From Nitrospinaceae bacterium (GTDB lineage: Bacteria > Nitrospinota > Nitrospinia > Nitrospinales > VA-1): 48,627 bases of DNA. Location of the stretch: contig JAJDBA010000047.1 of assembly GCA_029261675.1 (NCBI GenBank), positions 1-48,627 on the forward strand. Reading direction: 5' to 3'. The notes under the pieces are model-generated. The model saw only the letters and a program-made list of their open reading frames with translations. It was not told the DNA's origin and did no database searches. The position numbers and the translations under genes are program-made. Every line of letters starts with the position of its first letter. Position 1 is the first letter of the stretch. Of the stretch, positions 15,772-44,969 are shown piece after piece.

Positions 15772-17946
15772 ATGTTCAAAAAATATTTATACTTAATGAC
15801 AGGTTTGGTTCTTTTCCTGGGATGTGCTTTCCCAAGAGCCGAGGCCTTGGCTAAGACAGTTTCGGCCACTAAAACAGAAATTTCACTCGTAGATGGCATT
15901 GCCGTGGATAAAAAAGGCAACGTTTATATTGCCATGCGCGATAATAATATTATCAGTCGTATTGACCTTAAAGGGAATATGACCACTTACGTTGGTACTG
16001 GCTCTTCCGGTTTCAGCGGCGATGGTGGCAAGGCTACCGAGGCCAGATTGAATGTGCCTGCCGGACTGGCATTCGACAAAAGCGGGAATTTATATATCGC
16101 TGACCGAAACAATAATCGCATCCGCAAGGTTGACACGCGAGGCACTATCACCACGATCGCGGGAACTGGAACTGCCGGTTTCAGCGGCGATGGCGGCTTG
16201 GCTACGCGGGCACAAATAAGCCTCCCTTCCGGAATAGCTATTGATGGCAAGGGCAACATATTTTTTTCAGATCGATCCAATAACCGGATTCGAGTGATTG
16301 ATTCCAGTGGAAAAATCAGCACCTATGCTGGAAGCGGAAAAGATGGTTTTAAGGGAGATAACGGCCCTGCCCTCAAAGCTTCCATAGACAAGCCATTTGG
16401 GATAGCACTGGATAGAAAGGGAAACCTTTATATAGCTGACCGCAGAAATAACCGAGTCCGCAAGGTCAATACGCAAGGAATCATTACCACCGTGGCAGGT
16501 GATGGTGGCTACTTTATGATGGGTGATAACGGACCTGCTTATAGAGCCAGTGTTGCCGGGCCGACAGGTGTCGTAGTCGATGATCAAGGCACCCTTTATA
16601 TTGCTGACCGGGAAAATAACCGTATCCGTGCAGTGGACTCACAAGGCATGATCTCCACCGTTGTTGGAACCGGGAAACAGGATTACAACGGAGATTCAGA
16701 AGTGGCTCGCGATACAAACCTTCATCTTCCTTTCGGAGTCACATTAGATCCGGATGGCAAGTTACTGGTGATCGACCGCTCGCATTATCGCATTAGAAGC
16801 GTAGACTTGAAACGCGGTACTGTAAAAACCATTGCAGGAAATGGTAGAAAAATGTTCGCCGGAGATGGCGGCCCTGCAACAGGAGCTACACTGAGTTTCC
16901 CACATGGTATCGCAGTAGATAAAGAAGACAATGTGTTGATTTCAGATAAAGGGAATTACCGAATTCGTAAGATTTCCCCAGAGGGCATTATCCACACCAT
17001 TGCTGGCAACGGCATCCGCGGAAATATCGGTGACAATATGCCCGCTATGGAAGCCTCAATTTATGGGGCCACCTCGCTGAAACTGAACAACAAAGGAGAA
17101 ATGTATATTCTCAGCCCAAGCGGATTTGTGAGCCTGATTCGAAAGATTGATGAAAATGGGATCATGAGAAAAACTCTTGATACGGTTACTCCCAGATACC
17201 TTAAATCGATAGCGAATAGTAAGTATAAAGGCAAGGTGCAAACTGGGGAACTGGCTATCATCACTACCTTTTCAGATATCGCTTTCGATCACAAAGGCAA
17301 TATGTTTATCTCTGACCGGCTCAATCACCAGATTCGCAAAATGGACTCAAAAGGCAACATCTCCACCATCGCGGGAACGGGTGAGTCGTCTCATTATGGA
17401 GATGGCAGCCCTGCAAGTGAAGCGGCCTTTCGAGACCCCAGTGCATTAGCCACAGACAAAGAAGGAAATTTGTATATTGGGGATGGCGCCAATAATATGA
17501 TAAGGAAAATTGATACAAAGGGTATCATCTCTACCATCGCAGGCAACGGTAATCACAAAGCCACTGGCGATGGAGGGCCAGCAGTGAAGGCAGGCATTCG
17601 CAATATAGATTACTTGGAAGTCAGCCCAGAGGGGGAAGTTCATATAGTAGGAATGAATTCAAACACTATCCGAAAAATCACTAAGGACGGGAAGATTGTT
17701 ACGGTAGCTGGAACAGGTTATCAGGGTTATTCTGGCGATGGCGGTCCCGCGACCAAGGCCATGCTTAAAAGCCCAGTGGCTATAACATTCGATTCGAAGA
17801 GCAATTTATACATTACCGACATGGGCAATAACCGTATCCGAAAAGTGGATACTAAAGGCATCATTACTACGTTTGCGGGAACGGGTAATTTCGGTTGGGC
17901 TCATGATGGCGAAACAGTTGAGATTATTTTACAGGATTTCCCCTGA
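15772..17946 (+). CDS. exported NHL-repeat beta-propeller protein (about 12 blades)
   Basis: The 724-aa ORF has a signal peptide (LVLFLGCAFPRAEA) followed by a roughly 56-aa unit repeated about 12 times: (I/V)AGTG..G(F/Y)SGDGGPA..A.L..P.G(I/V)A.D..GNLYI(A/S)D..NNRIRK(V/I)D..G.I(T/S)T. Confidence 0.9.
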   Translation: MFKKYLYLMTGLVLFLGCAFPRAEALAKTVSATKTEISLVDGIAVDKKGNVYIAMRDNNIISRIDLKGNMTTYVGTGSSGFSGDGGKATEARLNVPAGLAFDKSGNLYIADRNNNRIRKVDTRGTITTIAGTGTAGFSGDGGLATRAQISLPSGIAIDGKGNIFFSDRSNNRIRVIDSSGKISTYAGSGKDGFKGDNGPALKASIDKPFGIALDRKGNLYIADRRNNRVRKVNTQGIITTVAGDGGYFMMGDNGPAYRASVAGPTGVVVDDQGTLYIADRENNRIRAVDSQGMISTVVGTGKQDYNGDSEVARDTNLHLPFGVTLDPDGKLLVIDRSHYRIRSVDLKRGTVKTIAGNGRKMFAGDGGPATGATLSFPHGIAVDKEDNVLISDKGNYRIRKISPEGIIHTIAGNGIRGNIGDNMPAMEASIYGATSLKLNNKGEMYILSPSGFVSLIRKIDENGIMRKTLDTVTPRYLKSIANSKYKGKVQTGELAIITTFSDIAFDHKGNMFISDRLNHQIRKMDSKGNISTIAGTGESSHYGDGSPASEAAFRDPSALATDKEGNLYIGDGANNMIRKIDTKGIISTIAGNGNHKATGDGGPAVKAGIRNIDYLEVSPEGEVHIVGMNSNTIRKITKDGKIVTVAGTGYQGYSGDGGPATKAMLKSPVAITFDSKSNLYITDMGNNRIRKVDTKGIITTFAGTGNFGWAHDGETVEIILQDFP

Positions 17947-19013: not shown

Positions 19014-21389
19014 GTGTTCACTTTTAAAAAGGGACTGGCAATTTTTCTGATTACCCTGATAGGGGTCTGCTCTGCCTATGCTCAGGAAGAAGATTGGACT
19101 TTTTGGCAGCAAAAACTTTTCCAAGCTAAAGCGGACGATGCCAACGATCACGAAAAAGCGCATTTCTGGAGGACCCAGGAACCTCACATCAAAGAGGTAA
19201 AGGTCACCGCAACTCTGCCCGACTACCCTTGGGTAAAAGTCGCTGGTTACAGAAACCGTTCAGTAGAGCGTTGCATCACCTGTCACGATGGCATTTCTGC
19301 CGTCAGCACATCACATCCACCGGAGTTTGGTTGCACTGTCTGCCATGGCGGCGAACCTGAATCCCTCAACAAAGATCAAGCCCACGCCACATTAATATAT
19401 GATCCCAAAGCTGGGACCGGGAAGCGCAACCCATCCAGCCTAACTGTGGTTGAGCAATCCTGCGGGCAACTTTATTGCCACTCTGGCCATACAGAGGAAG
19501 ATCGTAACCATATTCAACGATTAAACAAATCTATGATGAATACTCTGGCTGGAGTGATTTCAGGCTTGCGTTATCAATGGGCCGGACAAAATAAAAAGAC
19601 CGCACGTTATGCAACAGAAGAAATTGCAGACAAAGACGGCAATACACCACATGAATGGGGTGCTTTAGAAAAGTTGGAAAAACTGCCTTACTTTTCTCCT
19701 TTGGATATCCCAAAATCGAATAAAAAAAACATCCACGCGATTTCAAAAAATCCCGGTGACCGCCTTTTGCGCCAACAGTGTTTTCAATGCCATATAGACT
19801 CCCCACCGCCGCCGGGACAATATCGGTCCCAAGGTTGCGCAGCTTGTCATTTCACTTATTCGAGTACAGGCCTCTATGAGGGCGATGATCCTACTATCTC
19901 CAAAACACAAACAGGTCATGCAAAATTCCACAAGCTTCAGGCTCTACCAAAACGCACCGTGTGCGTGCAATGCCATCGAGGATTTTCTTTGCAGCCTTTG
20001 GGCAATGACCCTTCTCCGGTTAGAGAGAAGGGGGCAACCGAACCCGCTGAAGAAATAAATGACGAGCTAAATATCGATCAGCCACTACAAAAAGAAGTGT
20101 TTATCGAAAAAGGACTAGAAAGAATTGAAATTCCTATAGAAGAAAAAGTGATAGATGATGAAAACGAATTGTTCTTAAAAAACCTTGAAGAGAATCCTGA
20201 AAAAGTTGTCATAACAAGCGAAGAGGAACAATCCGTAATAGAAACTCCTCTATTTGCAGGGCAGGGAAATGTTCAGGTTGATGTCCATACCGCTCGTGGT
20301 ATGGATTGCATCGACTGCCACACGCAACGCGATATCATGGGAGATGGCAACCTGTATTCTAAACAGCATCAAGCTGTAGAAATTCGTTGCGAAACCTGTC
20401 ATGGTGATGACACTAGCTATCCTCTGGTATCTCAAGTTACCGATCCCAAAGACGCGGTAATTCGACTCAGTAACAACTACGAGGGCGAACCCAATTCTGT
20501 TGGAGACTCGATGGCTGTTTCCGAACGAAAAAGACGAATGGCAAATGTAAAAGTTCAAAACGGGAAAATGGTTACCCTTAGCAAACGTAGCGGTCGTGTT
20601 TATAATATTCCTTTGGTTCGAGATACAGATGCCCATTTTATTCCACAGCACCGATCTCGATTGGAATGCACCGCCTGCCATTCTCAATGGGTGGTTCGAT
20701 GTCCAGGTTGCCATGTCTCCATGAAATTAGGACAGGATAAATTAGATTTGAAGATTGCACCACCTATGCAAGTTCAACAACCGACACTTATGATAGGGCC
20801 TCGTGGAAAAGTTGCGCCGATGCTTGCGCAACCCGAAAGGCATTTTTCACTGTTAGATGAAAAGGGAAATCCAATTCCCGTATTGGGGCCTGCAGGACAA
20901 CACCGTGGAGAATATAAGGAATGGCCTTTCACCAATCCTCATAATACATCGGGGGCAAACCTTGCTTATTCGTTAAACCCTCATTCCACAGGAACAAAAG
21001 TTCGTTCCTGCGAAAGTTGCCATTTGTCTCCTAAAACTTTAGGATTAGGAGAAGGCGACTTGAAAATTGGCGCAAATAATACCGGAAAAAATGATTCCTT
21101 GATTCCGTTGAACCATTCCGATGAACGGGTCAAGGCATCAAAATTTGATCCCGAAGCAAAAGTCTCAATGCAAGGAGAAATTCTTGCCGGAAGTCATCAA
21201 CTCATAGCCAGGCCTTTTAACCAAAAAGAGATAATAAGAATTTTGAAAGTGGGGAATTGCATTCCATGCCACGATCAATATGATGACCCCATTTATCAGA
21301 ATATTAATAAAAGCTATGCCTTCGAAGGCACAATGAAACACCGTAAACTGCGTGAAAGAATATTGAACCTAGAGCAAACACAACCGTGA
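19014..21389 (+). CDS. multihaem c-type cytochrome, 11 CxxCH + 1 CX4CH
   Basis: The 791-aa ORF has a GTG start and a signal peptide (LITLIGVCSAYAQ). Haem motifs are CITCH, CTVCH, CGQLYCH, CFQCH, CAACH, CVQCH, CIDCH, CETCH, CTACH, CPGCH, CESCH and CIPCH. Confidence 0.92.
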   Translation: MFTFKKGLAIFLITLIGVCSAYAQEEDWTFWQQKLFQAKADDANDHEKAHFWRTQEPHIKEVKVTATLPDYPWVKVAGYRNRSVERCITCHDGISAVSTSHPPEFGCTVCHGGEPESLNKDQAHATLIYDPKAGTGKRNPSSLTVVEQSCGQLYCHSGHTEEDRNHIQRLNKSMMNTLAGVISGLRYQWAGQNKKTARYATEEIADKDGNTPHEWGALEKLEKLPYFSPLDIPKSNKKNIHAISKNPGDRLLRQQCFQCHIDSPPPPGQYRSQGCAACHFTYSSTGLYEGDDPTISKTQTGHAKFHKLQALPKRTVCVQCHRGFSLQPLGNDPSPVREKGATEPAEEINDELNIDQPLQKEVFIEKGLERIEIPIEEKVIDDENELFLKNLEENPEKVVITSEEEQSVIETPLFAGQGNVQVDVHTARGMDCIDCHTQRDIMGDGNLYSKQHQAVEIRCETCHGDDTSYPLVSQVTDPKDAVIRLSNNYEGEPNSVGDSMAVSERKRRMANVKVQNGKMVTLSKRSGRVYNIPLVRDTDAHFIPQHRSRLECTACHSQWVVRCPGCHVSMKLGQDKLDLKIAPPMQVQQPTLMIGPRGKVAPMLAQPERHFSLLDEKGNPIPVLGPAGQHRGEYKEWPFTNPHNTSGANLAYSLNPHSTGTKVRSCESCHLSPKTLGLGEGDLKIGANNTGKNDSLIPLNHSDERVKASKFDPEAKVSMQGEILAGSHQLIARPFNQKEIIRILKVGNCIPCHDQYDDPIYQNINKSYAFEGTMKHRKLRERILNLEQTQP

Positions 21390-24124
21390 ATAAATTGTTT
21401 CGAATTTTTCTGTCGCTGATCTTTGTATTAGGGCTCTGCCTTGGCAGCTTCCTTACCTATTCTTCGGGCCAGGATACAAACGATTTCTCTGACTTTTTTG
21501 ATGGGAAGCCAACTGACGAATCGATTGATACCCCGCCTGATAAAGATTCGTCTGGGATACTGGACTTCTTTCTAAAACCGGGATCCAAAACGAAAGATAT
21601 TCAAGAAACAGAAATCACTCCCAAGCCTGGAAAAACATTGCACACCAAAGAAATGGTTGAGATGCCAGCATCGTCGCCTAAGACTCAAATTGATGCTTCC
21701 GATTTCGAAGACCCTTTTTATCGAGTCAGAGGATTCCAGGGAAATTCAGAAAAAGTCCTGCAACCGGGTACAACATTGGATGGAGTTCAGTTTCAAACGT
21801 ATGGAGACACTAACAAGTTCATTGAAAAGTTTTATAAAGAATCTAACTTTTCACTCGAAGATGTGTATGGGAAAATTGAATACCTTGAAAGGCGTGGTGG
21901 CTGCTATAACTGCCATCAGGGAATTGAGAGGATCAGCAACAACCATCGTTTTTCCTGCGTTCGTTGCCATGGTGGCAACAGGCGATCCAGTTCATTACCG
22001 AATGCCCATAAAGGGCTTGTACCAAATCCATCCTCGGCAAAAAATGCTCCCCGATTTTGCGGGAAATGTCATGGTGACCATGTCCGCAAAGTAGAGCGAT
22101 CGCTGATGTCGACAGCTAAAAGAATGATCAACATAACCCGCTTCGGGTGGGGCGCGCAACCTGAGGATGAACTTCCATTCTCATTGCAGCCGGATGATAA
22201 CGAACAGGCCCTGCTCAGTGCAGGAGCGGGTCACCCTGTAGACGGATTTCTCAGAGCCAAATGCCTGCGTTGCCATATTGGATCAGAAAGCCCTCATCGT
22301 CCCGGAGATTACCGGGCATCGGGTTGTTCTTCCTGTCATATGATTTACTCGAACGATGGAATCTCATTGTCACATGACCGAGCTATACAAAAGCTGCAAA
22401 ATAAAAGTGGCAAACAAAATCGTTTTGCCAGAAAATTTTCGGAAAACTCTTTGAATAATTCACGCGGCTATCCCTTGCTACATAAGTTCACCGTTGCTGT
22501 TCCGAGTTTGCAGTGCGAGCATTGTCACAACAATAACGGAGTGGGGCAAGAATTCGAAGGCCTATTTGCAAAACCTTCACGCCCAAAGGAAGCACCGGAG
22601 CAGATCAACGCAGAAAAACCCGTTCTATATGGTAAAGAGCATGAATTTCTCGTTCCCGATATTCATCGTGAAAAAGGCATGCATTGCATCGACTGCCATA
22701 TTGGCGCTGAAATGAAACCCGATGTAGAACCAGATCAGCTTCATTCTGGAGTACAGATCCGTTGTGTTGATTGCCATGGTACCCAGGAAAAACTTCCTGA
22801 AGAATTTCTTTTAATCGAATCGGACCCGAACACAAAAAAAATGATCGCGAGTACCAACCTTAATCCCAATCTGAAGAAAAAAATTCGCGCGGGAGATACT
22901 GTTTTAGTTAATTCAAGCGGTTCCCCTATGTTGCATATTAAACGGGTAAAGAATAAATGGGTTTTAATCTCAAAGGTTTCAGGAAAGAAACACAACATTC
23001 CTTTACTTAAAAACCTCAAGCCTTCTATAGCGCACCAGATTCCAAAACATATGCGGGAAATGGAATGTGCCACTTGTCATGCACGTTGGGCAGCTACAGA
23101 ATGGGGCATGCACGTTATACGAGAGGAAAATTTTAACCCTGAAAAATGGAAAAACTGGAACCTCTCTGATCCTTCCCTGCAGTCTTTATTGTCAAATTCT
23201 TCAATTGAAAAAACAGGGATGCTGGATTGGCCGACAGCCAAATCACTGCCACAAAAAATTGAAGCCAGCATGTTAGATGAATACTGGTGGACCGTGTTCT
23301 CTGATGCTGGATGGTCTGATATGGTGATGGGTAAGAATTCGCGTGGGAAATATGCCATTCTGAAACCTCGTTATCAATATTTTATCACCGAGCCAGTAGG
23401 ACCATCAGGTCTCCCTTCGAAACGGGCAGAGCCTCCCTTAACACTTGACGATTCCCCTGGTTTGATTTGGACGGATCACTCACCCCATACGATTCGCAAA
23501 ACGGTACGCTCTTGTGAAAGTTGCCATCAAAACTCTTTATCTGTGGGGCTTGGGGATAGTTTGAAAAAATCTATTCAGAATGCCGGACAATTTTTCTCAG
23601 GATTAAAACAGAACAATCAGGTAAATTCAGACTTCCAACTCAAGCAAGGAATAGATCCAAACGGTCAGGCATTACAGACTTTCTTTCCGGGAGATAAATC
23701 GCGTTTTCTAAACAGCGAAGAGATCACTGCCTTGCAGAAACCCTCAGACCGCTACCGGGCATTTCGCTCTCTGAATTTACGGGAGCTGAATTTTTCAAGA
23801 CTATTGAGTCGCAAAGAATTCCCCTATGATGTTCGGCATCGGCTTCGTGAAAATAATATGGGACAATCGCAGCCTCGCGAAGACCTTTTCTATAACGCTG
23901 AAAAAAATCAGTTTGTTAAAATTGAAAAACCAAAAGAAGCTCCAGAACTTCCCGAAGAATTCGCACCTGAGCAGCCGCAAGAATCAGAGGAAAGCAACGA
24001 AACGATGAAGCCTGATAAAGAAGAAGATGGAATCATTGAATTTCTCTACGACATCTTTCAGGAAAAGGGTAAGCCCCCGGTCAGCGAACCTCTGCCGATA
24101 CCTAGTGAAGCTACTCCACTATGA
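21386..24124 (+). CDS. multihaem c-type cytochrome, 10 CxxCH (paralogue of the preceding gene)
   Basis: The 912-aa ORF has a GTG start overlapping the upstream TGA (GTGA) and an N-terminal signal/anchor (IFLSLIFVLGLCLG). Haem motifs are CYNCH, CVRCH, CGKCH, CLRCH, CSSCH, CEHCH, CIDCH, CVDCH, CATCH and CESCH. Confidence 0.92.
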   Translation: MNKLFRIFLSLIFVLGLCLGSFLTYSSGQDTNDFSDFFDGKPTDESIDTPPDKDSSGILDFFLKPGSKTKDIQETEITPKPGKTLHTKEMVEMPASSPKTQIDASDFEDPFYRVRGFQGNSEKVLQPGTTLDGVQFQTYGDTNKFIEKFYKESNFSLEDVYGKIEYLERRGGCYNCHQGIERISNNHRFSCVRCHGGNRRSSSLPNAHKGLVPNPSSAKNAPRFCGKCHGDHVRKVERSLMSTAKRMINITRFGWGAQPEDELPFSLQPDDNEQALLSAGAGHPVDGFLRAKCLRCHIGSESPHRPGDYRASGCSSCHMIYSNDGISLSHDRAIQKLQNKSGKQNRFARKFSENSLNNSRGYPLLHKFTVAVPSLQCEHCHNNNGVGQEFEGLFAKPSRPKEAPEQINAEKPVLYGKEHEFLVPDIHREKGMHCIDCHIGAEMKPDVEPDQLHSGVQIRCVDCHGTQEKLPEEFLLIESDPNTKKMIASTNLNPNLKKKIRAGDTVLVNSSGSPMLHIKRVKNKWVLISKVSGKKHNIPLLKNLKPSIAHQIPKHMREMECATCHARWAATEWGMHVIREENFNPEKWKNWNLSDPSLQSLLSNSSIEKTGMLDWPTAKSLPQKIEASMLDEYWWTVFSDAGWSDMVMGKNSRGKYAILKPRYQYFITEPVGPSGLPSKRAEPPLTLDDSPGLIWTDHSPHTIRKTVRSCESCHQNSLSVGLGDSLKKSIQNAGQFFSGLKQNNQVNSDFQLKQGIDPNGQALQTFFPGDKSRFLNSEEITALQKPSDRYRAFRSLNLRELNFSRLLSRKEFPYDVRHRLRENNMGQSQPREDLFYNAEKNQFVKIEKPKEAPELPEEFAPEQPQESEESNETMKPDKEEDGIIEFLYDIFQEKGKPPVSEPLPIPSEATPL

Positions 24125-24780
24125 AAAGTTTCCTTTACATTCTGATGGGTGGATGGTTTCTTTGTAGCCCAATTCTTTCCCACGCTTCTTTGATTCAGGA
24201 AAAAGAATGCTCCGAATGTCATCGCGTGTCCAAGGATGATACTGAAAAAAGCGGGCCAGATTTATTTTATTCAGGAAATAAATTTCAGGCCTCCTGGCTG
24301 AAACAATACCTCCAAAACCCTATAACCATCAGAAGTGCAGGGAGCACTGGCGATCCTGATTTCCTGAAAGGGATACAAGCAAACAGTCAGAAGCATCCTG
24401 CGGTTTCTAAAAAGGATGCAGAGCAAATTACTAAGGAGTTGATGGCGTTAACGCTTTATGATCTGCCGGAAGAGGTTAATCTCCTCGAGCCTTTAACAAA
24501 AGGACTAAAAGCGAAAATAAAATACCAGTTCGAGCGTACATTCAGTTGTATCTCCTGTCACCAAAGTTTGAATCTTGCTGGAAAAGTTCGTGGTGGGATT
24601 TCTGGCCCCTCTCTCGTCAATGCGGGAAACCGTTTGCAGGCGCGTTGGGCTGCAAGCTGGCTTAAGAGTCCCAAAACATTTTCAAATAAAAGTCGTATGC
24701 CTGTTTACAAGATGGAAGATGAGGAGCGTTTACAGCTTACCCAGTTCCTAATGACGATGAAAAATGAAAATAAGCGCTGA
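24121..24780 (+). CDS. dihaem class I-type cytochrome c
   Basis: The 219-aa ORF overlaps the upstream gene by ATGA and has a signal peptide. It has two similar halves, each with CxxCH (CSECH, CISCH) followed by GP(D/S)L...W...L..P. Confidence 0.85.
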   Translation: MKSFLYILMGGWFLCSPILSHASLIQEKECSECHRVSKDDTEKSGPDLFYSGNKFQASWLKQYLQNPITIRSAGSTGDPDFLKGIQANSQKHPAVSKKDAEQITKELMALTLYDLPEEVNLLEPLTKGLKAKIKYQFERTFSCISCHQSLNLAGKVRGGISGPSLVNAGNRLQARWAASWLKSPKTFSNKSRMPVYKMEDEERLQLTQFLMTMKNENKR

Positions 24781-24783
24781 CCC

Positions 24784-25251
24784 ATGAAAAAAAGTTCACC
24801 CAAATTTATTTTGAACTATTGTATTTTTCTGATTGCATTAGGCATAACAGGCTGTGGCGAAAAAACCTCCGAAAAAACTCCGGCACCTAAACCTCCGCTG
24901 AAAGCCGAATCACATTCACCTGCCCCTTTAGCAGAGGCGACTCAAGAACCTGTAGTGGTAACAGAAAAAACACGCAAAACCTATCAATGGTATTGTGCGC
25001 AGTGTCACGGCATTCAGGGTAAGGGCGATGGTATCAATGCCAAGTTTTTGACCGTGCCACCTCGAAACCACACCAAAGCCAAATATCTTGAAACCCGAAC
25101 CGATGAACAATTCTTTGAAGCGATCAAGTTTGGCGGTCTATCTGTAGGACGGGCACCCTGCATGCCAGCGTGGGGGAATACCCTGAGCGATTCTACGATC
25201 CATGAACTCGTGCGCTATATTCGAGAACTATGCCAATGCGAAGCTCTATAG
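24784..25251 (+). CDS. monohaem cytochrome c lipoprotein
   Basis: The 155-aa ORF has a lipobox (ALGITGC), CAQCHGIQGKGDG and a distal Met context (CMPAWG), typical of small class I cytochromes. It starts 3 nt after the upstream stop. Confidence 0.85.
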   Translation: MKKSSPKFILNYCIFLIALGITGCGEKTSEKTPAPKPPLKAESHSPAPLAEATQEPVVVTEKTRKTYQWYCAQCHGIQGKGDGINAKFLTVPPRNHTKAKYLETRTDEQFFEAIKFGGLSVGRAPCMPAWGNTLSDSTIHELVRYIRELCQCEAL

Positions 25252-27688: not shown

Positions 27689-28189
27689 ATGGAAAGCGTT
27701 AACCACATTTGTAGTTGCCAGAATGGATTGAGCGAGGCACAAAAAAAGCAGGCGGATGCCGTAGCCGGAGGGAGCTTTGAAAAGTTACTTGCCGAGTTTC
27801 AAATTTTGCGAACAACCTCTGGCGCAAAAAACCAAACTGCCAATTCCAAAAATCCGTTCGAAAATTCCCGCGCCTCTGACATTCGGGATATCTTTTTTCT
27901 GAATCAGGAAAAAGCAGAAGGTGCTTCTCTTTCTCTGCAGAATTTTTTCTCCTCTATGAAATCCGAGAATCAGTTTGAGAATTCTCGAGCTTCCGACATT
28001 CTGAATATCTTTTTTCTAAACCAAGAAAAACTAAAGGAATCTGATACCGATCCTCAGAAATTTGATAATAATTCCCCGCTGGACATTGAGAAATTAAGAA
28101 AAGATTTTACTAACCCTCGCGAGGTTCCGGGTTTTCTCGAAAAACAGTTTGAATTGTTTGGCCCCACCGTCATCAGCCGATTTATATAA
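27689..28189 (+). CDS. hypothetical protein with a duplicated FENSRASDI..IFFLNQEK motif
   Basis: The 166-aa ORF carries the 19-aa motif at 27857-27913 and 27974-28030, 39 codons apart. The two copies use different synonymous codons. Confidence 0.65.
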   Translation: MESVNHICSCQNGLSEAQKKQADAVAGGSFEKLLAEFQILRTTSGAKNQTANSKNPFENSRASDIRDIFFLNQEKAEGASLSLQNFFSSMKSENQFENSRASDILNIFFLNQEKLKESDTDPQKFDNNSPLDIEKLRKDFTNPREVPGFLEKQFELFGPTVISRFI

Positions 28190-29119: not shown

Positions 29120-29503
29120 ATGGTCAAGTTTTGTCTACAGTGTAAGAATGCGTTCTGGGGAGGTCAATATTGCCCGAAGTGTGAAGGGGAAATTGAACTG
29201 CTCGACGCCGCTTTACCTGAAAATAAAAAATATCTGCCGGAACTCAATATTGATGTGCGCCCCAAATATTATGCGCGTAGCTCCATGTTGCTTTCCTGTT
29301 TCGGATTCGTCATGGCGCTCCCACTAGGCGCGTTCATCTTTCTCCGGGGTATATCTTCCAGCGATGACCTTTTGCTCTGGGGCGGTTTGGGACTAGGCAC
29401 CGTTGTTGTAGTTTCATGGGGCTGCTGGTATCTCTCGCACCGGTTGTTCGACAAACAAATGGAAGCCGTAGAGTCCGAAGACAAAGAACTTCAACTCGAC
29501 TAG
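29120..29503 (+). CDS. zinc-ribbon membrane protein
   Basis: The 127-aa ORF has an N-terminal CLQC...CPKC zinc ribbon followed by two hydrophobic helices. Confidence 0.55.
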   Translation: MVKFCLQCKNAFWGGQYCPKCEGEIELLDAALPENKKYLPELNIDVRPKYYARSSMLLSCFGFVMALPLGAFIFLRGISSSDDLLLWGGLGLGTVVVVSWGCWYLSHRLFDKQMEAVESEDKELQLD

Positions 29504-29519
29504 CAGAGCCAACCTTTCA

Positions 29520-29902
29520 CTATTGTTCACTCGTTTCTCCATTAGCGCAACGAACCTGAGAAATAAATTTTTCGCGTGCTTGCTGATTTCGTAATTCAGC
29601 TTCTTCAATAATGGGCAATGTCGGCGCGTGTTTCATGAGTGCTTGAGCAAATAAACCCACCACTTCTTCAGGTAACACTTCTCCCTTCCCTGTATTTTTT
29701 GCTCATTTATATCCCCACAAGTTGAACCGGTCACACCCATTCCCACCTCGACTTCAGGACAGACAGGAATAAATTCAAAACATTTACTCAATTCATCCAG
29801 TAAAACAGCTTCTCGCTTATCTTCCGCATTCCAACGCACCTTTTCCCCTAACAGGCAACTGCTACCGCTTACTTTATAAGCATAGAGAATTTTATTAAAA
29901 AT
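29520..29902 (-). pseudogene. decayed DUF523 (YbbK/YbgA N-terminal-type) gene
   Basis: The minus-strand frame reads ...YKVSGSSCLLGEKVRWNAEDKREAVLLDELSKCFEFIPVCPEVEVGMGV, the DUF523 signature (SSCLLGEKVR, CPEVE.G.G). It then loses similarity. A second frame continues GEVLPEEVVGLFAQALMKHAPTLPIIEEAELRNQQAREKFISQVRC, the family C-terminal block. There is no ATG at the 5' end, and the segment between the blocks is far too short. Confidence 0.6.
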
Positions 29903-29944
29903 TTATTTTAGACAAAAACCCTTATATTTCAAATATTTATCAAT

Positions 29945-30023
29945 AAATCTATACAAAAATAGCATTTTTGTCTAATTTAATGTTGACAAATCTAATAATT
30001 TGTATAATATTAAATCTATACAT
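29945..30023 (+). promoter_or_regulatory. promoter region with AAATCTA repeats (candidate operator of the CarH-like regulator)
   Basis: TTGACA lies at 29983-29988. TATAAT at 30003-30008 gives only a 14-nt spacer; TAATAT at 30005-30010 gives a 16-nt spacer. TAAATCTATACA occurs at 29944-29955 and again at 30011-30022, and AAATCTA also occurs at 29988-29994. Confidence 0.4.
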
Positions 30024-30068
30024 AGTTCTAAGTTTTTAATTATAATTATAAATCAGGGGGACAGACCA

Positions 30069-30776
30069 ATGATAGCAAAACAAACCATCTTCAAAACTTT
30101 GGCAATCGCTTCTTTGACCTTAATAACCTCAGGCACCGTGTTCGCCCATTCCAATCATGATCATTCTACAGTTCCATTCAAATGGCAGTTTTCAGAAAAC
30201 CTACATTCAAAAATTGAGAGAAACTTAAATTCTACAAAGCCCACAGGAGTTATTGGCTTAAATCCTTTCGAGCAGAAAAAGTTCAATCACTATGGAATCA
30301 AAGTTGGAAATAAATTCAGTTCTATCGTTCACAATATTGATGTCACATTCGAAAGAACTTCAGCAGGTCTTAAAATTACGAATGCCTCAGTTTTTAATAC
30401 AACAATGAACGGCGATATTCTTCCGTTTAAAAAAGTTTCAGAAGTTTCCAAAGTTTCTATGCAAAAACATTTTCACTCTGGGCATAACCATGACCGTCTA
30501 CAAGTTGAGTGGGTATTTGGAGATACCACCAATGCAAAAATCTTCAAACATATGTTTGAAGGTAAGGGCAGTCTCTCCGTAGGCTTGACCAATCTGGAAC
30601 AAGATTTACTGAATGAATATGGAATTAAACCTGGAAATAAATTCCAACTTTCTATTTCCGGACACAACTTTCTTGCAGAAAGAACTTCTGGTGGACTAGT
30701 CATCCTTAATCACATTGACCAAAAGAATCTCGCCAAGGCAGATTTGAACAAAGATACGGTTAAGGACAATATCTAA
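30069..30776 (+). CDS. exported protein with two tandem ~105-aa domains, each opening with an HS.H.H motif
   Basis: The start at the ATG at 30069 is preceded by GGGGGA and gives a signal peptide (...TSGTVFA/HSNHDHS). Domain 1 starts at 30147 and domain 2 at 30474 (HSGHNHD). The two are collinear (W.F, GL...EQ...YGIK.GNKF, ERTS.GL.I.N). Confidence 0.7.
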   Translation: MIAKQTIFKTLAIASLTLITSGTVFAHSNHDHSTVPFKWQFSENLHSKIERNLNSTKPTGVIGLNPFEQKKFNHYGIKVGNKFSSIVHNIDVTFERTSAGLKITNASVFNTTMNGDILPFKKVSEVSKVSMQKHFHSGHNHDRLQVEWVFGDTTNAKIFKHMFEGKGSLSVGLTNLEQDLLNEYGIKPGNKFQLSISGHNFLAERTSGGLVILNHIDQKNLAKADLNKDTVKDNI

Positions 30777-30808
30777 TCTCGTTTCAAATATAAGGGATCA
30801 CAATTCCT

Positions 30809-31753
30809 ATGATTGACACTGGCAAAATGGAAAATTTGATTTCAATAGGTGAACTGGCACGACTGACCGGAATAACGACTCACACATTGAGAATGTGGGA
30901 AAAGCGATACGGCACCCCCCATTCCCAAAGGTTGCCTTCCGGTCATCGCCGGTATCCCAAAGAAGATGTTCCAAGACTAAGGGCAATTGCCAAAGCTTTG
31001 GAGTCGGGATATAGGGCCAGTAAAGTGGTCTCTGGTACTTTGGAAGAATTGCATGGTTTGATGGGACTAAAACCTTTAATCGATCCTAATCTCAAATCAA
31101 CTAAGGAAAATGAGAACTCGTCTAACGAACTGTTAATTGAGCGTTGGATAAAAGGGATTCATGAATTCGATGACGACTGTCTTATTCAGGGTTTTCATGA
31201 ACAATGGAATAAATCTGGCCCTCTCAAATTCATTATTGAATACATGATCCCTTTAATTGAAAGAGTAGGCAAGGGATGGGAGTCCGGCGAACTCTCTATT
31301 CCACACGAACATTTTGCAACAGAATGCATAGAAAGTTTTCTCACCCCTAAATGGAGACAACTGAATAGTAGAAAAGAAGGTTGGAGTTTATTAATGGCAA
31401 CTTTGCCAGGAGAAACCCATAACCTGGGGCTACTTATGTCTGCTGTTGTTGCAAGTCTTTCTGGTGCGAAGATCATCTATCTGGGTCTGAATACCCCATT
31501 GGAAGATATTATTTCAACTGCTAATAATTTTGATCCCAAACTCCTTTGTCTCAGCATTTCCTGCGGAAAAAAATTATTTGATCCAGAAGATTGCCTTCTA
31601 AAAATAAAAACAGAATTGAACAAGAATGTAACCCTTATTTCAGGGGGAAAAGGAACTCCAGATAATTTACCTGGAATCACAAAGATGGAAGATTTTAATA
31701 TTTTCAACCATTGGTTGGAAAACTTTGAAAAACAATTACTAACAGCAGTCTAA
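30809..31753 (+). CDS. CarH/LitR-like MerR-family regulator with a C-terminal B12-binding domain
   Basis: It has an N-terminal MerR HTH (ISIGELARLTGITTHTLRMWEKRYG). W157-x9-E167-H168 (GKGWESGELSIPHEH) matches Wx9EH. E202-T-H204-N-L-G207 matches (D/E)xHxxG, followed 41 residues later by SIS and 27 residues after that by GG. Confidence 0.8.
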   Translation: MIDTGKMENLISIGELARLTGITTHTLRMWEKRYGTPHSQRLPSGHRRYPKEDVPRLRAIAKALESGYRASKVVSGTLEELHGLMGLKPLIDPNLKSTKENENSSNELLIERWIKGIHEFDDDCLIQGFHEQWNKSGPLKFIIEYMIPLIERVGKGWESGELSIPHEHFATECIESFLTPKWRQLNSRKEGWSLLMATLPGETHNLGLLMSAVVASLSGAKIIYLGLNTPLEDIISTANNFDPKLLCLSISCGKKLFDPEDCLLKIKTELNKNVTLISGGKGTPDNLPGITKMEDFNIFNHWLENFEKQLLTAV

Positions 31754-31789
31754 TTTAATATTTTTTGAATATAGGGGGAATGTATAAAA

Positions 31790-32314
31790 ATGGAAGACCT
31801 CAAGCAAGCAGTGATACTTATAGGACATGGTGGATTGCCCAGCGATATTCCCAAAGGAATCGTGGAAGATTTTATGAAAATCCACAAACAAAGAGTACGG
31901 ATGGGAACTCCAATAACTGAAAAAGAAAAAGATCTGGAATCTACTATTAGAAACTGGGAAAGAACACCCGAATCAGATCCCTATAAAACTGGATTAGAAA
32001 GTCTTGCTTCTCATCTCGCCCCCCGGCTGGAGGGTTATGTATTGAAAACGGCCTACAATGAGTTTTGTTTTCCATCGATAGAACAAGCAGCTGACCAATT
32101 GGCCGAAGAGAATGTTACGGAAGTCATCCTAATAACCACAATGATTACTCCGGGCGGATCGCATTCAGAAAGGGAAATACCTGAGGAAGTTGAGGCTCTT
32201 CGCTTAAAGTACCCCAAAATGAACTTTCAGTATGCCTGGCCCTATGATCTGGATATTTTTTCAAATCTTTTATCAGATCATATTATTAACTTTTCAAAAA
32301 AGTCTTCTGTTTAG
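31790..32314 (+). CDS. CbiX/SirB-like chelatase domain protein
   Basis: The 174-aa ORF has VILIGHGG near the N-terminus and TPGGSHSEREIPEEV near the C-terminus, resembling the single-domain CbiX class II chelatase fold. An insertion of about 40 aa follows the first strand. Confidence 0.55.
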   Translation: MEDLKQAVILIGHGGLPSDIPKGIVEDFMKIHKQRVRMGTPITEKEKDLESTIRNWERTPESDPYKTGLESLASHLAPRLEGYVLKTAYNEFCFPSIEQAADQLAEENVTEVILITTMITPGGSHSEREIPEEVEALRLKYPKMNFQYAWPYDLDIFSNLLSDHIINFSKKSSV

Positions 32315-32329
32315 ACTCATCTTTTTAAA

Positions 32330-32833
32330 ATGGCTAACCCAAAATACCTTTCAAAAAAACGCAATTATTTTTTAGACCTATTCATCACTCTTATTTTTTC
32401 TCTTGTAGGTCTTTTAAGCTTCTTTATTTCTCCCAGCTATTCACTTGCTTGGAACGATGAAGAATGGCTTGAATCGGGTTGTCCAAAAACAGCATCAGGA
32501 AAATGGGCCACTGATAATCCTGAGACTACAGATTTAAGGTTTCTTTCAATAAATAATAGCGAAGTAATATATATTTCAAAAAGTGATGAAGCGCAAAAGT
32601 TTGAAATTGATAAATCTTCATTTATTTCCAATTATCAGTACGTAAAAATTAAACCTGTTAACAACCAAAATGAAACTGTTTTAAAAATCCGCCCGCATCT
32701 AATTCATATGGGTTTACAAAAAGAGACAAACAATCCCAATTGCCTGATTAAGGTATTTACTTATAAAAATGAGAAGTATGCAAAAACGGACCGATATTCT
32801 GGATGGAATATTTTCCGATTAATAAAACAATAA
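32330..32833 (+). CDS. membrane-anchored hypothetical protein
   Basis: The 167-aa ORF has one N-terminal TM helix (FLDLFITLIFSLVGLLSFFI). It starts 15 nt after the cbiX-like stop. Confidence 0.55.
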   Translation: MANPKYLSKKRNYFLDLFITLIFSLVGLLSFFISPSYSLAWNDEEWLESGCPKTASGKWATDNPETTDLRFLSINNSEVIYISKSDEAQKFEIDKSSFISNYQYVKIKPVNNQNETVLKIRPHLIHMGLQKETNNPNCLIKVFTYKNEKYAKTDRYSGWNIFRLIKQ

Positions 32834-32869
32834 GAGGTTTTATAGAGCCTTAGAAATGGTGGCTAGACT

Positions 32870-33172
32870 ATGGCTTATGAATGTAAGGTCTTTGACAAAA
32901 ATGGAAAACTTAAAAAAATATTACGAGGAAATCAGGTAACCAAAGAAAGCAAAGAATTTTTCAATCAGCCTTCAACTAAAAAGATCAGTTCTTTAATAAA
33001 CAATTTTAAAGAACCCGCTATTGAAGAGAATAAGAATACAAAGTTCTACAATAAAATTTGCGTGGTGTGTAAGAGGGAATTTCATCCTCGGCACCCAAAC
33101 TCAAAATACTGTTCGCATGAGTGCCAAAAACATTTGTATCTGGCAAAGAAAAAAAAGGGAAATCCCGGTTAA
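32870..33172 (+). CDS. small basic protein with a C-terminal CxxC...CxxxC zinc-ribbon-like motif
   Basis: The 100-aa ORF carries CVVCKREFHPRHPNSKYCSHECQKH. It is the last gene of the plus-strand run. Confidence 0.5.
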   Translation: MAYECKVFDKNGKLKKILRGNQVTKESKEFFNQPSTKKISSLINNFKEPAIEENKNTKFYNKICVVCKREFHPRHPNSKYCSHECQKHLYLAKKKKGNPG

Positions 33173-33196
33173 AATTTCCGGGCTTGGGAGTTTAGT

Positions 33197-33251
33197 CGAT
33201 TTTCAATGTTCCTCTTTTCAATGTTCTTCACTGTTGAAAATTTGAAAATCG
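33197..33251. repeat. nested direct/inverted TTTTCAA / TTGAAAA repeat cluster
   Basis: TTTTCAATGTTC occurs at 33200-33211 and 33215-33226. TTGAAAA occurs at 33234-33240 and 33242-33248. The outer arms CGATTTTCAA (33197-33206) and TTGAAAATCG (33242-33251) are exact reverse complements. Confidence 0.6.
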
Positions 33252-33290
33252 GTAAGCCGGGGTTTCCCGTAATAATTTACATCAAAAAAA

Positions 33291-34559
33291 TCAACTACTA
33301 GCTCGATGGCCGATGTCTTTTCTATAGTGGATACCATCCCACTTAATTTTTTCTACGGCTTCGTAAGCACGGGAGATGGCAGTGGCCGTATCTTCTCCGA
33401 TAGCGGTCACGCCTAAAACTCTTCCCCCATGAGTTAGCACCTCTCCGTCTTGTTCTTTAGTGCCTGCATGAAACACCGCAACACCGGGAAGAGCGTTGGC
33501 GTCTTTCAATCCTGATATAGGCTTTCCTTTTTCATAAGAATTTGGATAACCCTTTGCAGCCATCACTACGCAAACAGACGATTCGTTTTTCCACTGCAGT
33601 GGGCATTTATCCAACGTTCCATCGATACATGCTTCAAATATTGGAATAATATCGCTATCCATTCGAACAAGTAGGGGTTGAGTTTCAGGATCACCAAAAC
33701 GGGCATTGAACTCAAGAATCTGCGGGCCTGTTTTAGTCAACATTAATCCGGCATAAAGAATTCCTTTATAAGGTCTACCTTCCTGCTGCATGGCTCGAAT
33801 CATAGGTAACATGATTTTGTCGCGAACCTTTTGCCGCATTGTCTCAGTAAAAACCGGTGCCGGAGAATAAGCCCCCATGCCACCTGTGTTTGGACCCTTA
33901 TCACCATCATATGCGGCTTTATGGTCCTGAGCTGAATCCATCAGTAAAACCGTTTGCCCATCACTAAAAGCCAAAAGAGAAACTTCTTCTCCTTCTAAAA
34001 ATTCTTCAATAACGATTTGGTCACCTGCCTCACCAAATGATCTCTCTCCCATTATCGAATCGACAGCAGCCAGAGCTTCATCTGCCGTTTGGCACAACAA
34101 CACTCCTTTACCTGCTGCAAGGCCATCTGCCTTTACAACCAGTGGACAATTTTTACTTTCGATGTAGTTTCTTGCACTATCTGCAGAGTTAAAAGTTTTA
34201 TATTCTGCAGTTGGAAGCCCATATTTTTTCATAATGTCTTTAGAAAAAGATTTGCTACCTTCCAATTCGGCTGCCCGGGCATTGGGACCAAAAATACGCA
34301 AACCTTTTCCTTCGAATTGATCGACGATTCCTTTTACCAAGGGTTGTTCCGGACCCACCACGGTCAATCCAATATCATTTTCCACCGCAAATTTAAGAAG
34401 GCTGTCAATATCATCCGCCGCAATGGGGAGGTTCTCAGCAATTTCTGCTGTTCCCGCATTTCCTGGCGCGCAGAAGATTTTTTGGACCCTTGAGCTTTGT
34501 TTTATCTTCCAAACCAGTGCATGTTCGCGTCCGCCACCACCAATAACCAAAACCTGCAT
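33291..34559 (-). CDS. purD: phosphoribosylamine--glycine ligase
   Basis: The 422-aa ORF has MQVLVIGGGGREHAL, an ATP-grasp core and the GPNTGGMGAYSP and EFNARFGDPE blocks. Confidence 0.96.
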   Translation of the reverse strand: MQVLVIGGGGREHALVWKIKQSSRVQKIFCAPGNAGTAEIAENLPIAADDIDSLLKFAVENDIGLTVVGPEQPLVKGIVDQFEGKGLRIFGPNARAAELEGSKSFSKDIMKKYGLPTAEYKTFNSADSARNYIESKNCPLVVKADGLAAGKGVLLCQTADEALAAVDSIMGERSFGEAGDQIVIEEFLEGEEVSLLAFSDGQTVLLMDSAQDHKAAYDGDKGPNTGGMGAYSPAPVFTETMRQKVRDKIMLPMIRAMQQEGRPYKGILYAGLMLTKTGPQILEFNARFGDPETQPLLVRMDSDIIPIFEACIDGTLDKCPLQWKNESSVCVVMAAKGYPNSYEKGKPISGLKDANALPGVAVFHAGTKEQDGEVLTHGGRVLGVTAIGEDTATAISRAYEAVEKIKWDGIHYRKDIGHRASS

Positions 34560-44610: not shown

Positions 44611-44969
44611 GGGGGCGATCCGGTTTCGACGGGAGAGCTGAAGCAAGGGTTGCATGCACGGGGTGCCGTTGGCCCGTTAAAAAACGGCTTTTATATAATC
44701 GCTAACGATTATGATGTAGCTGTAGCCGCTTAATTTAAACGGTTACCGTCCGCCGCGTCCATGTTCGCGGGATACGGGTCGGACGTCACTCAGCGAACTG
44801 GTTCTGTTTACATGTTCCGAGTAAATGGGACGAGATTTTTAGGAACTGGTGTCGACTTAATCCTGCTTCTGGGAGTTCGTCGGGACAAGACTCAAATCAG
44901 AAGATAAGCATGTAGACGCCTTTGTCTAAAACCTTTCGGACGGGGGTTCGATTCCCCCCGCCTCCACCA
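44611..44969 (+). ncRNA. ssrA: transfer-messenger RNA
   Basis: The 5' GGGGGCG pairs with the 3' CGCCTCC-A-CCA, with G3:U as in tRNA-Ala. It has the T-arm GGGGGTTCGATTCCCCC and the 5' GGTTTCGACGGG block. The tag reading frame is GCT AAC GAT TAT GAT GTA GCT GTA GCC GCT TAA (44701-44733), giving ANDYDVAVAA. Confidence 0.95.

Follow-up and report, generated by a model that had tools for sequence, protein, structure and literature searches.

CarH of Thermus thermophilus (TtCarH; Protein Data Bank (PDB) entries 5C8A, 5C8D, 5C8E, 5C8F and 3WHP) is among the closest described counterparts of the regulator encoded in a five-gene locus that we analyzed in a 48,627-nucleotide (nt) stretch of DNA from a Nitrospinaceae bacterium (contig JAJDBA010000047.1 of assembly GCA_029261675.1, positions 1 to 48,627; the whole stretch is hereafter called the window). 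Both TtCarH and the window regulator combine a MerR winged helix-turn-helix domain, a bundle of four helices and a B12 domain of Rossmann type, and the Wx9EH and ExHxxG...SxS...GG motifs were in register between the two proteins. Candidate half-sites upstream of the window genes fit the TtCarH consensus, nAnnTnnACAn (PMC8156234), and overlap a promoter, but they alternate in orientation, whereas the TtCarH operator consists of three tandem direct repeats. The cargo and the host also differ, since TtCarH governs carotenoid genes, while the window cargo is not carotenoid and its host is a marine nitrite oxidizer of a lineage reported to be B12-auxotrophic. Nitrospinaceae are the main nitrite oxidizers of the ocean.

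The CarH proteins of Myxococcus xanthus and Bacillus megaterium, which belong to the class I LitR family, are 5'-deoxyadenosylcobalamin (AdoCbl)-dependent repressors with operators of about 43-55 bp over a sigma-A promoter, which resembles the arrangement proposed here. Unlike the window regulator, they control carotenogenesis and use four tandem 11-bp repeats, and the literature searched describes for them no partner resembling either the histidine-motif protein (HisPeri) or the CbiX-like chelatase of the window. The M. xanthus host is, like that of the window, a B12 auxotroph, for which imported chromophore suffices (PMC8156234). The CarA protein of M. xanthus likewise has MerR DNA-binding and B12-binding domains and represses at a promoter-overlapping operator, in a manner comparable to that proposed for the window regulator. 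However, CarA lacks Wx9EH and is B12-independent (PMC8156234), whereas the window regulator contains this motif.

The class II LitR proteins of Pseudomonas (PplR/PmlR) are, like the window regulator, of MerR type, and they control mixed sets of light-induced genes, many of them of unknown function, which include short-chain dehydrogenases (PMC9758184). In contrast to the window regulator, they have no Rossmann B12 domain and act via LOV partners, and none of the photolyase, cryptochrome, ufaM and folE genes of the Pseudomonas sets was present here. Among described chelatases, CfbA (6M2E and others), the small CbiX proteins and SirB (5ZT7 and 6JV6) have the same fold as the CbiX-like protein of the window, in which GHG, SH..EIPEE and a conserved Glu align with SirB catalytic positions, but only the window protein has an insertion of about 50 residues after the first strand and a photoreceptor-type gene as its neighbor.

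The regulator and its resemblance to CarH

The original prediction, which was made from the DNA alone, described a 314-residue MerR-family protein with a complete set of B12-binding motifs, and Pfam and a regular-expression check both agreed with this description. In particular, MerR_1 (1.2e-14) and MerR (1e-11) matched residues 12-69, B12-binding_2 (PF02607; 1.4e-11) matched residues 110-176 and B12-binding (PF02310; 1.7e-8) matched residues 194-281, with MerR_1 and both B12-binding families over their gathering scores. The regulator contained W157-x9-E167-H168 and E202-T-H204-N-L-G207, followed by S249-I-S251, 41 residues past G207, and by G279-G280, 27 residues past S251. Wx9EH and ExHx2Gx41SxV/Tx22-27GG together define CarH homologues (PMC8156234), and the only deviation of the window protein from the SxV/T consensus was the Ser at its third residue (S251).

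A phmmer search against all PDB chains ranked TtCarH first (3whp and 5c8d), with an E-value of approximately 1e-25. As evident from the alignment, W157, E167-H168 and H204 were in register with TtCarH W131, E141-H142 and H177, so that the placement of Wx9EH and of the His ligand proposed in the original prediction was borne out. The DNA-binding domain matched that of TtCarH with an E-value of 9.6e-11 and 43% identity over 61 residues (26/61). Together, the motif positions and the strength of the TtCarH alignment confirmed the initial observation at a level far beyond chance.

Additionally, a 2024 study defined GxxW, EH, GxxH and GxxxP as the light-response signature of cobalamin-binding domains (PMC11796333), and the regulator holds this signature in full, as G154KGW157, E167H168, G201ETH204 and G226LNTP230. 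Every sequence feature that the literature assigns to light sensors dependent on AdoCbl was thus found (PMC8156234, PMC11796333), which is consistent with the earlier view of the protein as such a sensor. Wx9EH, G207, SxS and GG were invariant among 115 full-length family members. The closest relatives of the regulator were annotated as Nitrospina, Nitrospinae or Nitrospinota, and the automated annotation of the Joint Genome Institute (JGI) labels several orthologues "light-induced transcriptional regulator". Published surveys have counted between hundreds and about 1,500 CarH homologues (PMC11796333, PMC8156234); the regulator is therefore already known in kind, while its partner genes, those for HisPeri and the unusual small chelatase, are undescribed. 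Judging from these motifs and alignments, we consider it highly probable that the protein is a photoreceptor repressor of the class I LitR/CarH type.

Conserved gene set, promoter region and cargo products

The open reading frame (ORF) list agreed with the five plus-strand genes and the gaps of 15-36 nt that had been described initially; the intergenic gaps are, in order, 32, 36, 15 and 36 nt. The genes encode HisPeri, the regulator (CarH), the CbiX-like protein, a membrane-anchored or secreted protein (Memb167) and a zinc-ribbon protein (Zn100), as listed in Table 1. Orthologues and gene call P0241 agree on ATG 30069 as the HisPeri start, with a GGGGGA ribosome-binding site upstream. An alternative TTG start at 30000 was rejected because the codon sits within the promoter and both the orthologues and the gene call use the ATG.

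When one genome of each species was scanned, 10 loci from Nitrospinaceae/Nitrospinota were recovered, together with a single distant one from Myxococcales. Synteny of the gene set was found in the related loci L001-L010, L012 and L014-L018, at about 50-92% regulator identity, so that these genes do travel together, a point that the original prediction had raised for checking. HisPeri lay upstream of carH in 14 of the 15 loci with upstream DNA, and CbiX followed carH in 15 of 16. The tblastn comparisons revealed the order asparaginase, Zn-ribbon membrane protein, HisPeri-CarH-CbiX-Memb167-Zn100 and purD in L001-L004, L006 and L008 (74-92% regulator identity), while Memb167 and Zn100 were missing from L005 and Memb167 from L007. 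The core of CarH-CbiX-Memb167-Zn100 was kept in L009 and L010 at 51-56% identity, L018 (from Tara Oceans) had a gene order identical to that of the window, and L017 kept HisPeri-CarH with CbiX absent.

Accessory genes were present in several relatives. In the complete genome of Ca. Nitrohelix vancouverensis (L012), the cluster contained HisPeri, a small secreted protein, CarH, SDR-epimerase/DUF1731/SRPBCC and CbiX, followed by DUF4149, Lipocalin_2, a 159-residue protein and then a convergent DUF523+DUF1722 gene, with MsrA nearby. The 159-residue protein (L012:15333-15812) scored 22.2 bits against a cut-off of 23 for Pyr_excise (pyrimidine-dimer DNA glycosylase), and its gene is a possible ultraviolet (UV)-repair member of the regulon in relatives. 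The order in L015 was HisPeri-CarH-CbiX-SDR/DUF1731-DUF4149, and L016 also carried an AhpC/TSA peroxiredoxin and a Memb167 homologue.

The original prediction had picked 29940-30030 for DNA-binding assays, and a conserved promoter with CarH-like half-sites was found there. The intergenic region 29885-30068 showed blockwise conservation across nine orthologous loci. The -35 hexamer of the principal promoter, P1, is also half-site S3, and TGTATA at 30001-30006 (half-site S4, minus strand) abuts its -10. For this -10, TAATAT at 30005-30010 (spacer of 16) was preferred to TATAAT at 30003 (spacer of 14). In a possible second promoter, P2, the hexamers are TATACA from 30017 and TATAAT ending at 30046, and half-site S5 (TCTATACA) supplies the -35. 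A divergent sigma-70-like promoter lies on the minus strand, and its block, TTGAAATATAAGG...T(G/A)TCTA, was also kept in L001 and L012; this promoter would have served a DUF523/DUF1722 gene that has since decayed.

Upstream of the P1 -35, half-sites S1 and S2 form a palindrome, and the pattern AnACAA-N6-14-TTGTnT occurred once per orthologous locus, at the same position, in seven of eight loci. In the alignment of nine promoter sequences, the ACAAA and TTGT columns were invariant, whereas the adjacent columns varied. The nAnnTnnACAn consensus had four matches in 29946-30023 (78 bp), overlapping the -35 and -10, compared with a window-wide rate of 0.65 per 300 bp. The conserved units can be written as TnTA(G/T)ACA elements of alternating orientation, approximately 15-19 bp apart, with ACA/TGT triplets at 29953-55 (plus strand), 29970-72 (minus), 29986-88 (plus, in the -35), 30001-03 (minus, abutting the -10) and 30020-22 (plus, in the P2 -35). 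A 12-nt direct repeat, TAAATCTATACA, was also present at 29944 and 30011.

Of the 19 sequences scanned (278 kb), 14 carried a composite of these elements, TTGA[CA]A-N11-14-T[GA]T[CA]TA (also written as TTGACA-N12/13-TGTCTA), at the P1 position on the plus strand; the distant loci L009, L012, L014, L015 and L017 were among them, and the composite was kept down to 51-56% protein identity. Elsewhere, it had one plus-strand hit (L010:2622) and three minus-strand hits, which fell at the divergent promoter (window 29909, L001 and L012/L013). In the window, P1 was the only site of a cluster of at least three half-sites, and the two other clusters across the loci, in L015 and in L017, were at this promoter too. 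Palindromes at 17454 and 21378 were considered as further operator copies in the window, but both were isolated and in coding sequence and were treated as chance matches. The half-site array is a candidate operator that likely functions as such, and we are reasonably confident that the regulator acts on its own operon through it.

The CbiX-like protein was recognized as a chelatase in the original prediction, and Pfam agreed, with CbiX (PF01903) matching at 5.2e-11 and 43.2 bits against a cut-off of 22. Its best PDB sequence matches were the SirB sirohydrochlorin ferrochelatases of Bacillus (3e-5). H13 (GHG) and H125 (SHSEREIPEE) aligned with GHGS and HAKHDIPEE of SirB, and E91 aligned with a SirB Glu. 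All three residues were invariant among 58 homologues, and from knowledge of SirB and CfbA we take them to be catalytic or metal-binding. The AlphaFold2 model, computed with the family alignment as input, had a predicted local distance difference test (pLDDT) score of 92.3. Foldseek returned CfbA and the small CbiX (3LYH) as the best matches, with template modeling (TM) scores of 0.70-0.77 on the target and an E-value of 1e-5, followed by SirB and HemH/CpfC; the probability was 1.00 for CfbA, CbiX, SirB and HemH. From its sequence and predicted fold, the protein appears to be a small chelatase of class II that is active and carries an additional two-helix element. That element (residues about 16-66) carries W56, R58 and D63-P64-Y65, which were invariant in the 58 homologues; it was as conserved as the active site and had no equivalent in the CfbA, CbiX and SirB matches.

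Insertion of metal into siroheme or a heme-type cofactor is our conservative guess at the role of this chelatase. The protein is unlikely to act in de novo B12 synthesis, because multiple cobalamin-synthesis genes are reported to be missing from Nitrospinae strains, which are described as B12 auxotrophs that rely on btuBCDF and on salvage that includes yvqK (PMC8026999). Neither the window nor any of 18 related loci contained cobalamin-synthesis genes. The corrinoid-handling flavor that had been suggested for the operon was weakened by this reported gene loss and by the SirB/CfbA type of the chelatase, which need not be a cobaltochelatase.

HisPeri has a signal peptide ending in AxA, and the predicted mature N-terminus is His27. 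Two repeats make up the protein, with an HxxH(D/N)H motif at the head of each (H27/H30/H32 and H136/H139/H141), and H27, D31, W39, H136, H139, H141 and W148 were invariant in 63 sequences. In the AlphaFold2 model (pLDDT 73.7), the two alpha/beta domains resembled each other and the His motifs were disordered. HisPeri matched no family in Pfam or NCBIfam and no PDB entry by profile, and Foldseek gave no hit below an E-value of 0.07. When 1.84 billion representative proteins were searched in full with a HMMER profile, only 63 clusters were returned; the large hit P0411, a giant protein with DUF11 repeats, was set aside as uninformative on function. By these searches, HisPeri is an orphan family that is so far tied to this locus, and its His motifs suggest that it probably binds metal or buffers it in the periplasm.

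Memb167 carries an N-terminal anchor or signal, and the alignment of 10 orthologues revealed an invariant Cys pair (C51/C138) together with WxDxxW...GCP and KxRPH motifs. Neither a Pfam match nor a PDB match by profile was found for this protein, which we read as a disulfide-containing envelope protein. A relationship to lipocalins was considered, since the cluster in relatives includes Lipocalin_2, and rejected; tblastn against the loci matched unannotated ORFs only and not Lipocalin_2, and L016 has both proteins separately. Zn100 is basic, with a C-terminal CxxC-x13-CxxxC treble-clef/zinc ribbon that was conserved in eight orthologues. Its assignment to DUF2256 (PF10013) was rejected, as the window protein and four orthologues scored 15.9-18.7 bits against a cut-off of 25, and it was equally weak, and below threshold, on DUF2116, NinG and PLATZ. 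By sequence, it can be classed only as a generic treble-clef zinc ribbon.

Proposed mechanism and competing explanations

We infer B12 binding, a light response, repression, transcription as an operon and every cargo function by analogy with the CarH proteins of Thermus, Myxococcus and Bacillus and from the conserved features of the locus. In the dark, the regulator would hold AdoCbl, with H204 as the lower ligand and with W157, E167 and H168 capping the adenosyl group. The AdoCbl-loaded protein would oligomerize, bind the TnTA(G/T)ACA array over the -35 and -10 of P1, the possible P2 and the mirror-image divergent promoter, and so repress its own five-gene operon, including its own gene. UV, blue or green light (to about 530 nm) would then cleave the Co-C bond, upon which the oligomer would dissociate and the operon would be transcribed, in line with the mechanism summarized for CarH (PMC8156234). 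Scarcity of B12 should also derepress the operon, because apo-CarH binds DNA poorly (PMC8156234) and the host imports B12, and the locus would in this way integrate light and B12 supply. We favor this explanation as a whole, in which an AdoCbl-bound repressor has its own operon switched on in the light, with some confidence.

The operon products would form a compact light and photo-oxidative-stress response, with the envelope and tetrapyrrole cofactors as the main sites of action. Within it, the CbiX-like protein would probably contribute to the supply of siroheme or heme-type cofactors or to the removal of photosensitizing metal-free tetrapyrroles. The accessory genes of the relatives, together with the DUF523 remnant in the window (described below), point to a reduced light/photo-oxidative-stress cluster rather than to B12 biosynthesis, and our reading is that the window holds the streamlined core of a Nitrospinota-wide cluster with accessory genes of oxidative/UV-stress types. 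A stress response is also in keeping with a report that N. gracilis has no catalase (PMC8115632). The cargo functions as we read them, namely stress response, metal binding and chelatase, are nevertheless tentative, and we hold them with rather less than even confidence.

The original prediction had suspected an undescribed regulon. That suspicion held in so far as no paper linking Nitrospina with CarH was found in the literature searched; it did not hold as to kind, because the locus appears to be a reduced light-stress cluster and not a different sort of regulon. The absence of carotenoid and photolyase targets, which had been taken as unusual, is less so than was thought, since known LitR regulons extend well beyond those genes (PMC9758184). 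Presence throughout Nitrospinota, partners of the HisPeri and CbiX-like kinds, half-sites of alternating orientation and substitutions of the cobalt ligand were not found in the searched literature, which also contained no paper linking CbiX with CarH or LitR regulons. The locus is mechanistically conventional unless the corrinoid-handling or the His-off reading considered below holds.

Several observations weigh against the favored mechanism. The best NCBIfam model for the regulator was the CarH equivalog NF052513 (TransRegCarH), with 118 bits against a cut-off of 400, and this low score marks it by sequence as a distant CarH member. By our reading of the alignment, four TtCarH residues are changed in the regulator (H132 to E158, R176 to T203, D201 to N228 and G160 to S187), of which His132, next to the Trp, becomes the upper ligand of the photoproduct and R176, D201 and G160 are dimer-dimer interface residues. 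The half-sites alternate in orientation, whereas characterized operators are built from tandem direct repeats of 11 bp, three or four in number (PMC8156234), and the geometry of binding may not be the same. Chance matches are inflated by the very high AT content of the region, and the single half-site pattern showed no enrichment over the window as a whole (14 found, 9.8 expected), with three of the 14 lying within 116 bp here. No convincing intrinsic terminator was found after the Zn100 gene, and a light-protective role has been demonstrated for none of the cargo genes of the window.

A further point of this kind concerns the cobalt ligand itself. At position 204, Tyr replaced His in 47 of 115 orthologues and Gln in 6 of 115. 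These variants occupy the identical HisPeri-CarH-CbiX locus (Tyr in L009, L015 and L017; Gln in L018) and are therefore orthologues, and they keep the promoter and the candidate operator. In the Tyr clade, a His directly follows SxS (SISH). The substitutions suggest that His-on B12 binding may not be essential to the core function of the family, and they may mark a natural His-off CarH variant with another binding mode or photochemistry. Such proteins could bind cobalamin His-off, could bind it via another ligand or could have lost B12 dependence. We regard these variants as the most interesting lead of this work, and natural His-to-Tyr and His-to-Gln changes of the CarH cobalt ligand could be of interest to photoreceptor biochemists and in optogenetics.

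Instead of light, the regulator could mainly sense B12 status, in which case the operon would be a response to B12 limitation or a corrinoid-handling system, with the CbiX-like protein and HisPeri binding or processing corrinoids. The B12 auxotrophy of Nitrospinae (PMC8026999), the frequent occurrence of the organism in the dark ocean and the tetrapyrrole-binding chelatase fold that neighbors carH in 15 of the 16 loci fit this explanation. Lack of B12 would derepress the operon in any case, apo-CarH being a poor DNA binder, and the recycling of photolyzed CarH chromophore is an acknowledged unknown (PMC8156234). We nonetheless consider it unlikely, since the adenosyl-capping Wx9EH and the complete light signature are photoreceptor features and the cluster lacks btu genes, B12-independent isozymes and an adenosyltransferase. 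A scan of the window with Rfam revealed no cobalamin riboswitch and no other element, the sole match being the transfer-messenger RNA (tmRNA) gene. The accessory genes of the relatives are of oxidative/UV-stress types, and the chelatase retains the metal-insertion residues of SirB and CfbA. A narrower form of this idea, in which the CbiX-like protein, possibly with HisPeri, is a corrinoid-handling partner of the photoreceptor and not a biosynthetic chelatase, is in our estimate quite unlikely. This chelatase-fold protein, with its conserved lid insertion, might bind the photolyzed cobalamin that CarH releases, or newly imported cobalamin, and channel it back to adenosylation; if true, a B12 auxotroph would be able to run an irreversibly bleaching photoreceptor without wasting a scarce vitamin.

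The regulator could also be a B12- and light-independent repressor resembling CarA, or answer another signal, with B12 motifs that are inherited and unused. The syntenic orthologues with Tyr or Gln in place of the ligand His, which keep both the DNA-binding domain and the operator, speak for this explanation, as do the score far under the NCBIfam CarH cut-off and the changed dimer-dimer interface residues. Wx9EH, which CarA lacks (PMC8156234), was yet invariant in 115 of 115 sequences here, and the window regulator has every B12 motif, with G207, SxS and GG under strong purifying conservation; we give the explanation very little credence. It would be similarly possible to regard the five genes as mere neighbors, with only carH or genes elsewhere under control and with promoter elements that are ordinary AT-rich sequence. 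The AT-rich intergenic DNA indeed offers numerous matches resembling the consensus (13 promoter-like sites against 10.5 expected), the half-site pattern was not enriched across the window, and HisPeri or CbiX can be missing, as in L009 and L017. Against this, order and orientation were kept across about 50-92% regulator identity with gaps of 15-36 nt, the half-site columns were invariant while their neighbors varied, and the composite motif was nearly unique to this promoter in 278 kb. This explanation is highly improbable in our view, and we retain the light-responsive, self-repressing operon as the preferred explanation.

If that explanation is correct, a B12 light sensor with its own promoter, operator and small regulon provides a molecular handle on the light response of Nitrospinaceae, and the locus is ecologically relevant. 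The light response would be tied to dependence on external B12, so that loss of the chromophore should mimic light. Three orphan families are also nominated as components of a light response: the HxxHxH periplasmic protein, the insertion-bearing chelatase and the Cys-pair envelope protein.

Features of the window

Table 1. Coordinates of the genes, promoters, candidate operator and remnants considered in the text.
Feature	Position	Strand	Basis
HisPeri (His-motif secreted protein, 235 residues)	30069..30776	+	ORF list, gene call P0241
Regulator of CarH/class I LitR type (314 residues)	30809..31753	+	domains, motifs, TtCarH alignment
CbiX-like small class II chelatase (174 residues)	31790..32314	+	Pfam CbiX, predicted fold
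Memb167, membrane-anchored or secreted protein (167 residues)	32330..32833	+	orthologue alignment
Zn100, basic zinc-ribbon protein (100 residues)	32870..33172	+	orthologue alignment
P1, TTGACA-N16-TAATAT	29983..30010	+	best sigma-70 match in 29400-33400, 10/12 positions
Half-site S5 with possible P2, TATACA-N18-TATAAT	30015..30046	+	promoter scan, alignment
Divergent sigma-70-like promoter, TTGAAA-N16-TAAAAT, with TGTCTA over the -10	29905..29932	-	promoter scan
Palindromic half-sites TCTATACAAAAAT-AGC-ATTTTTGTCTAA (S1 on +, S2 on -), candidate operator upstream of the -35	29948..29976	.	conservation
DUF523 (2-thiouracil-desulfurase-like)/DUF1722 (YbgA-like) pseudogene remnant	29714..29875	-	tblastn
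Further linker-like DUF523/DUF1722 fragment	29520-29678	-	frame translations
tmRNA gene	44611-44969	+	Rfam RF00023, 191.8 bits

The DUF523/DUF1722 remnant, an N-terminal piece that lies upstream of the operon and diverges from it, showed 54% identity over 54 residues (E-value 9e-15) to the intact gene of Ca. Nitrohelix (L012:15833-16801). Among the other relatives, L006 had an unbroken match of 166 residues and L001 an N-terminal fragment of 55 residues, while L002-L004, L007 and L008 gave no match. We take the decay of this DUF523/DUF1722 gene as a sign of genome streamlining. In L001, a gene resembling an H+-translocating pyrophosphatase (L001:2623-4713, 696 residues) lies between two DUF523/DUF1722 remnants upstream of the operon.

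Genes for sigma factors of the extracytoplasmic function (ECF) type adjoin the cluster in some Nitrospinota, at L014:8932-9561 (minus strand) and at the ends of L012 and L017, and none was found in the window. Such sigma genes beside CarH recall the LitR-LitS pairs of Streptomyces.

Downstream of the operon, the region between Zn100 and purD contained a tandem direct repeat at 33200-33230, consisting of two copies of TTTTCAATGTTC(C/T)TC. The remainder of the window encodes housekeeping functions, with multiheme cytochromes, EngB, purD, an amino-acid ABC transporter and the tmRNA. Two large multiheme c-type cytochromes, which were ExtM-like at scores under the equivalog cut-offs, were located at 19014-24124 (plus strand), and small cytochrome c genes came next (24121-25251). 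Finally, a 166-residue ORF at 27689-28189 (plus strand), for which no family match was found, contained an internal duplication (NPFENSRASDI..IFFLNQEK, present twice) and was kept in L001, L002 and L004.

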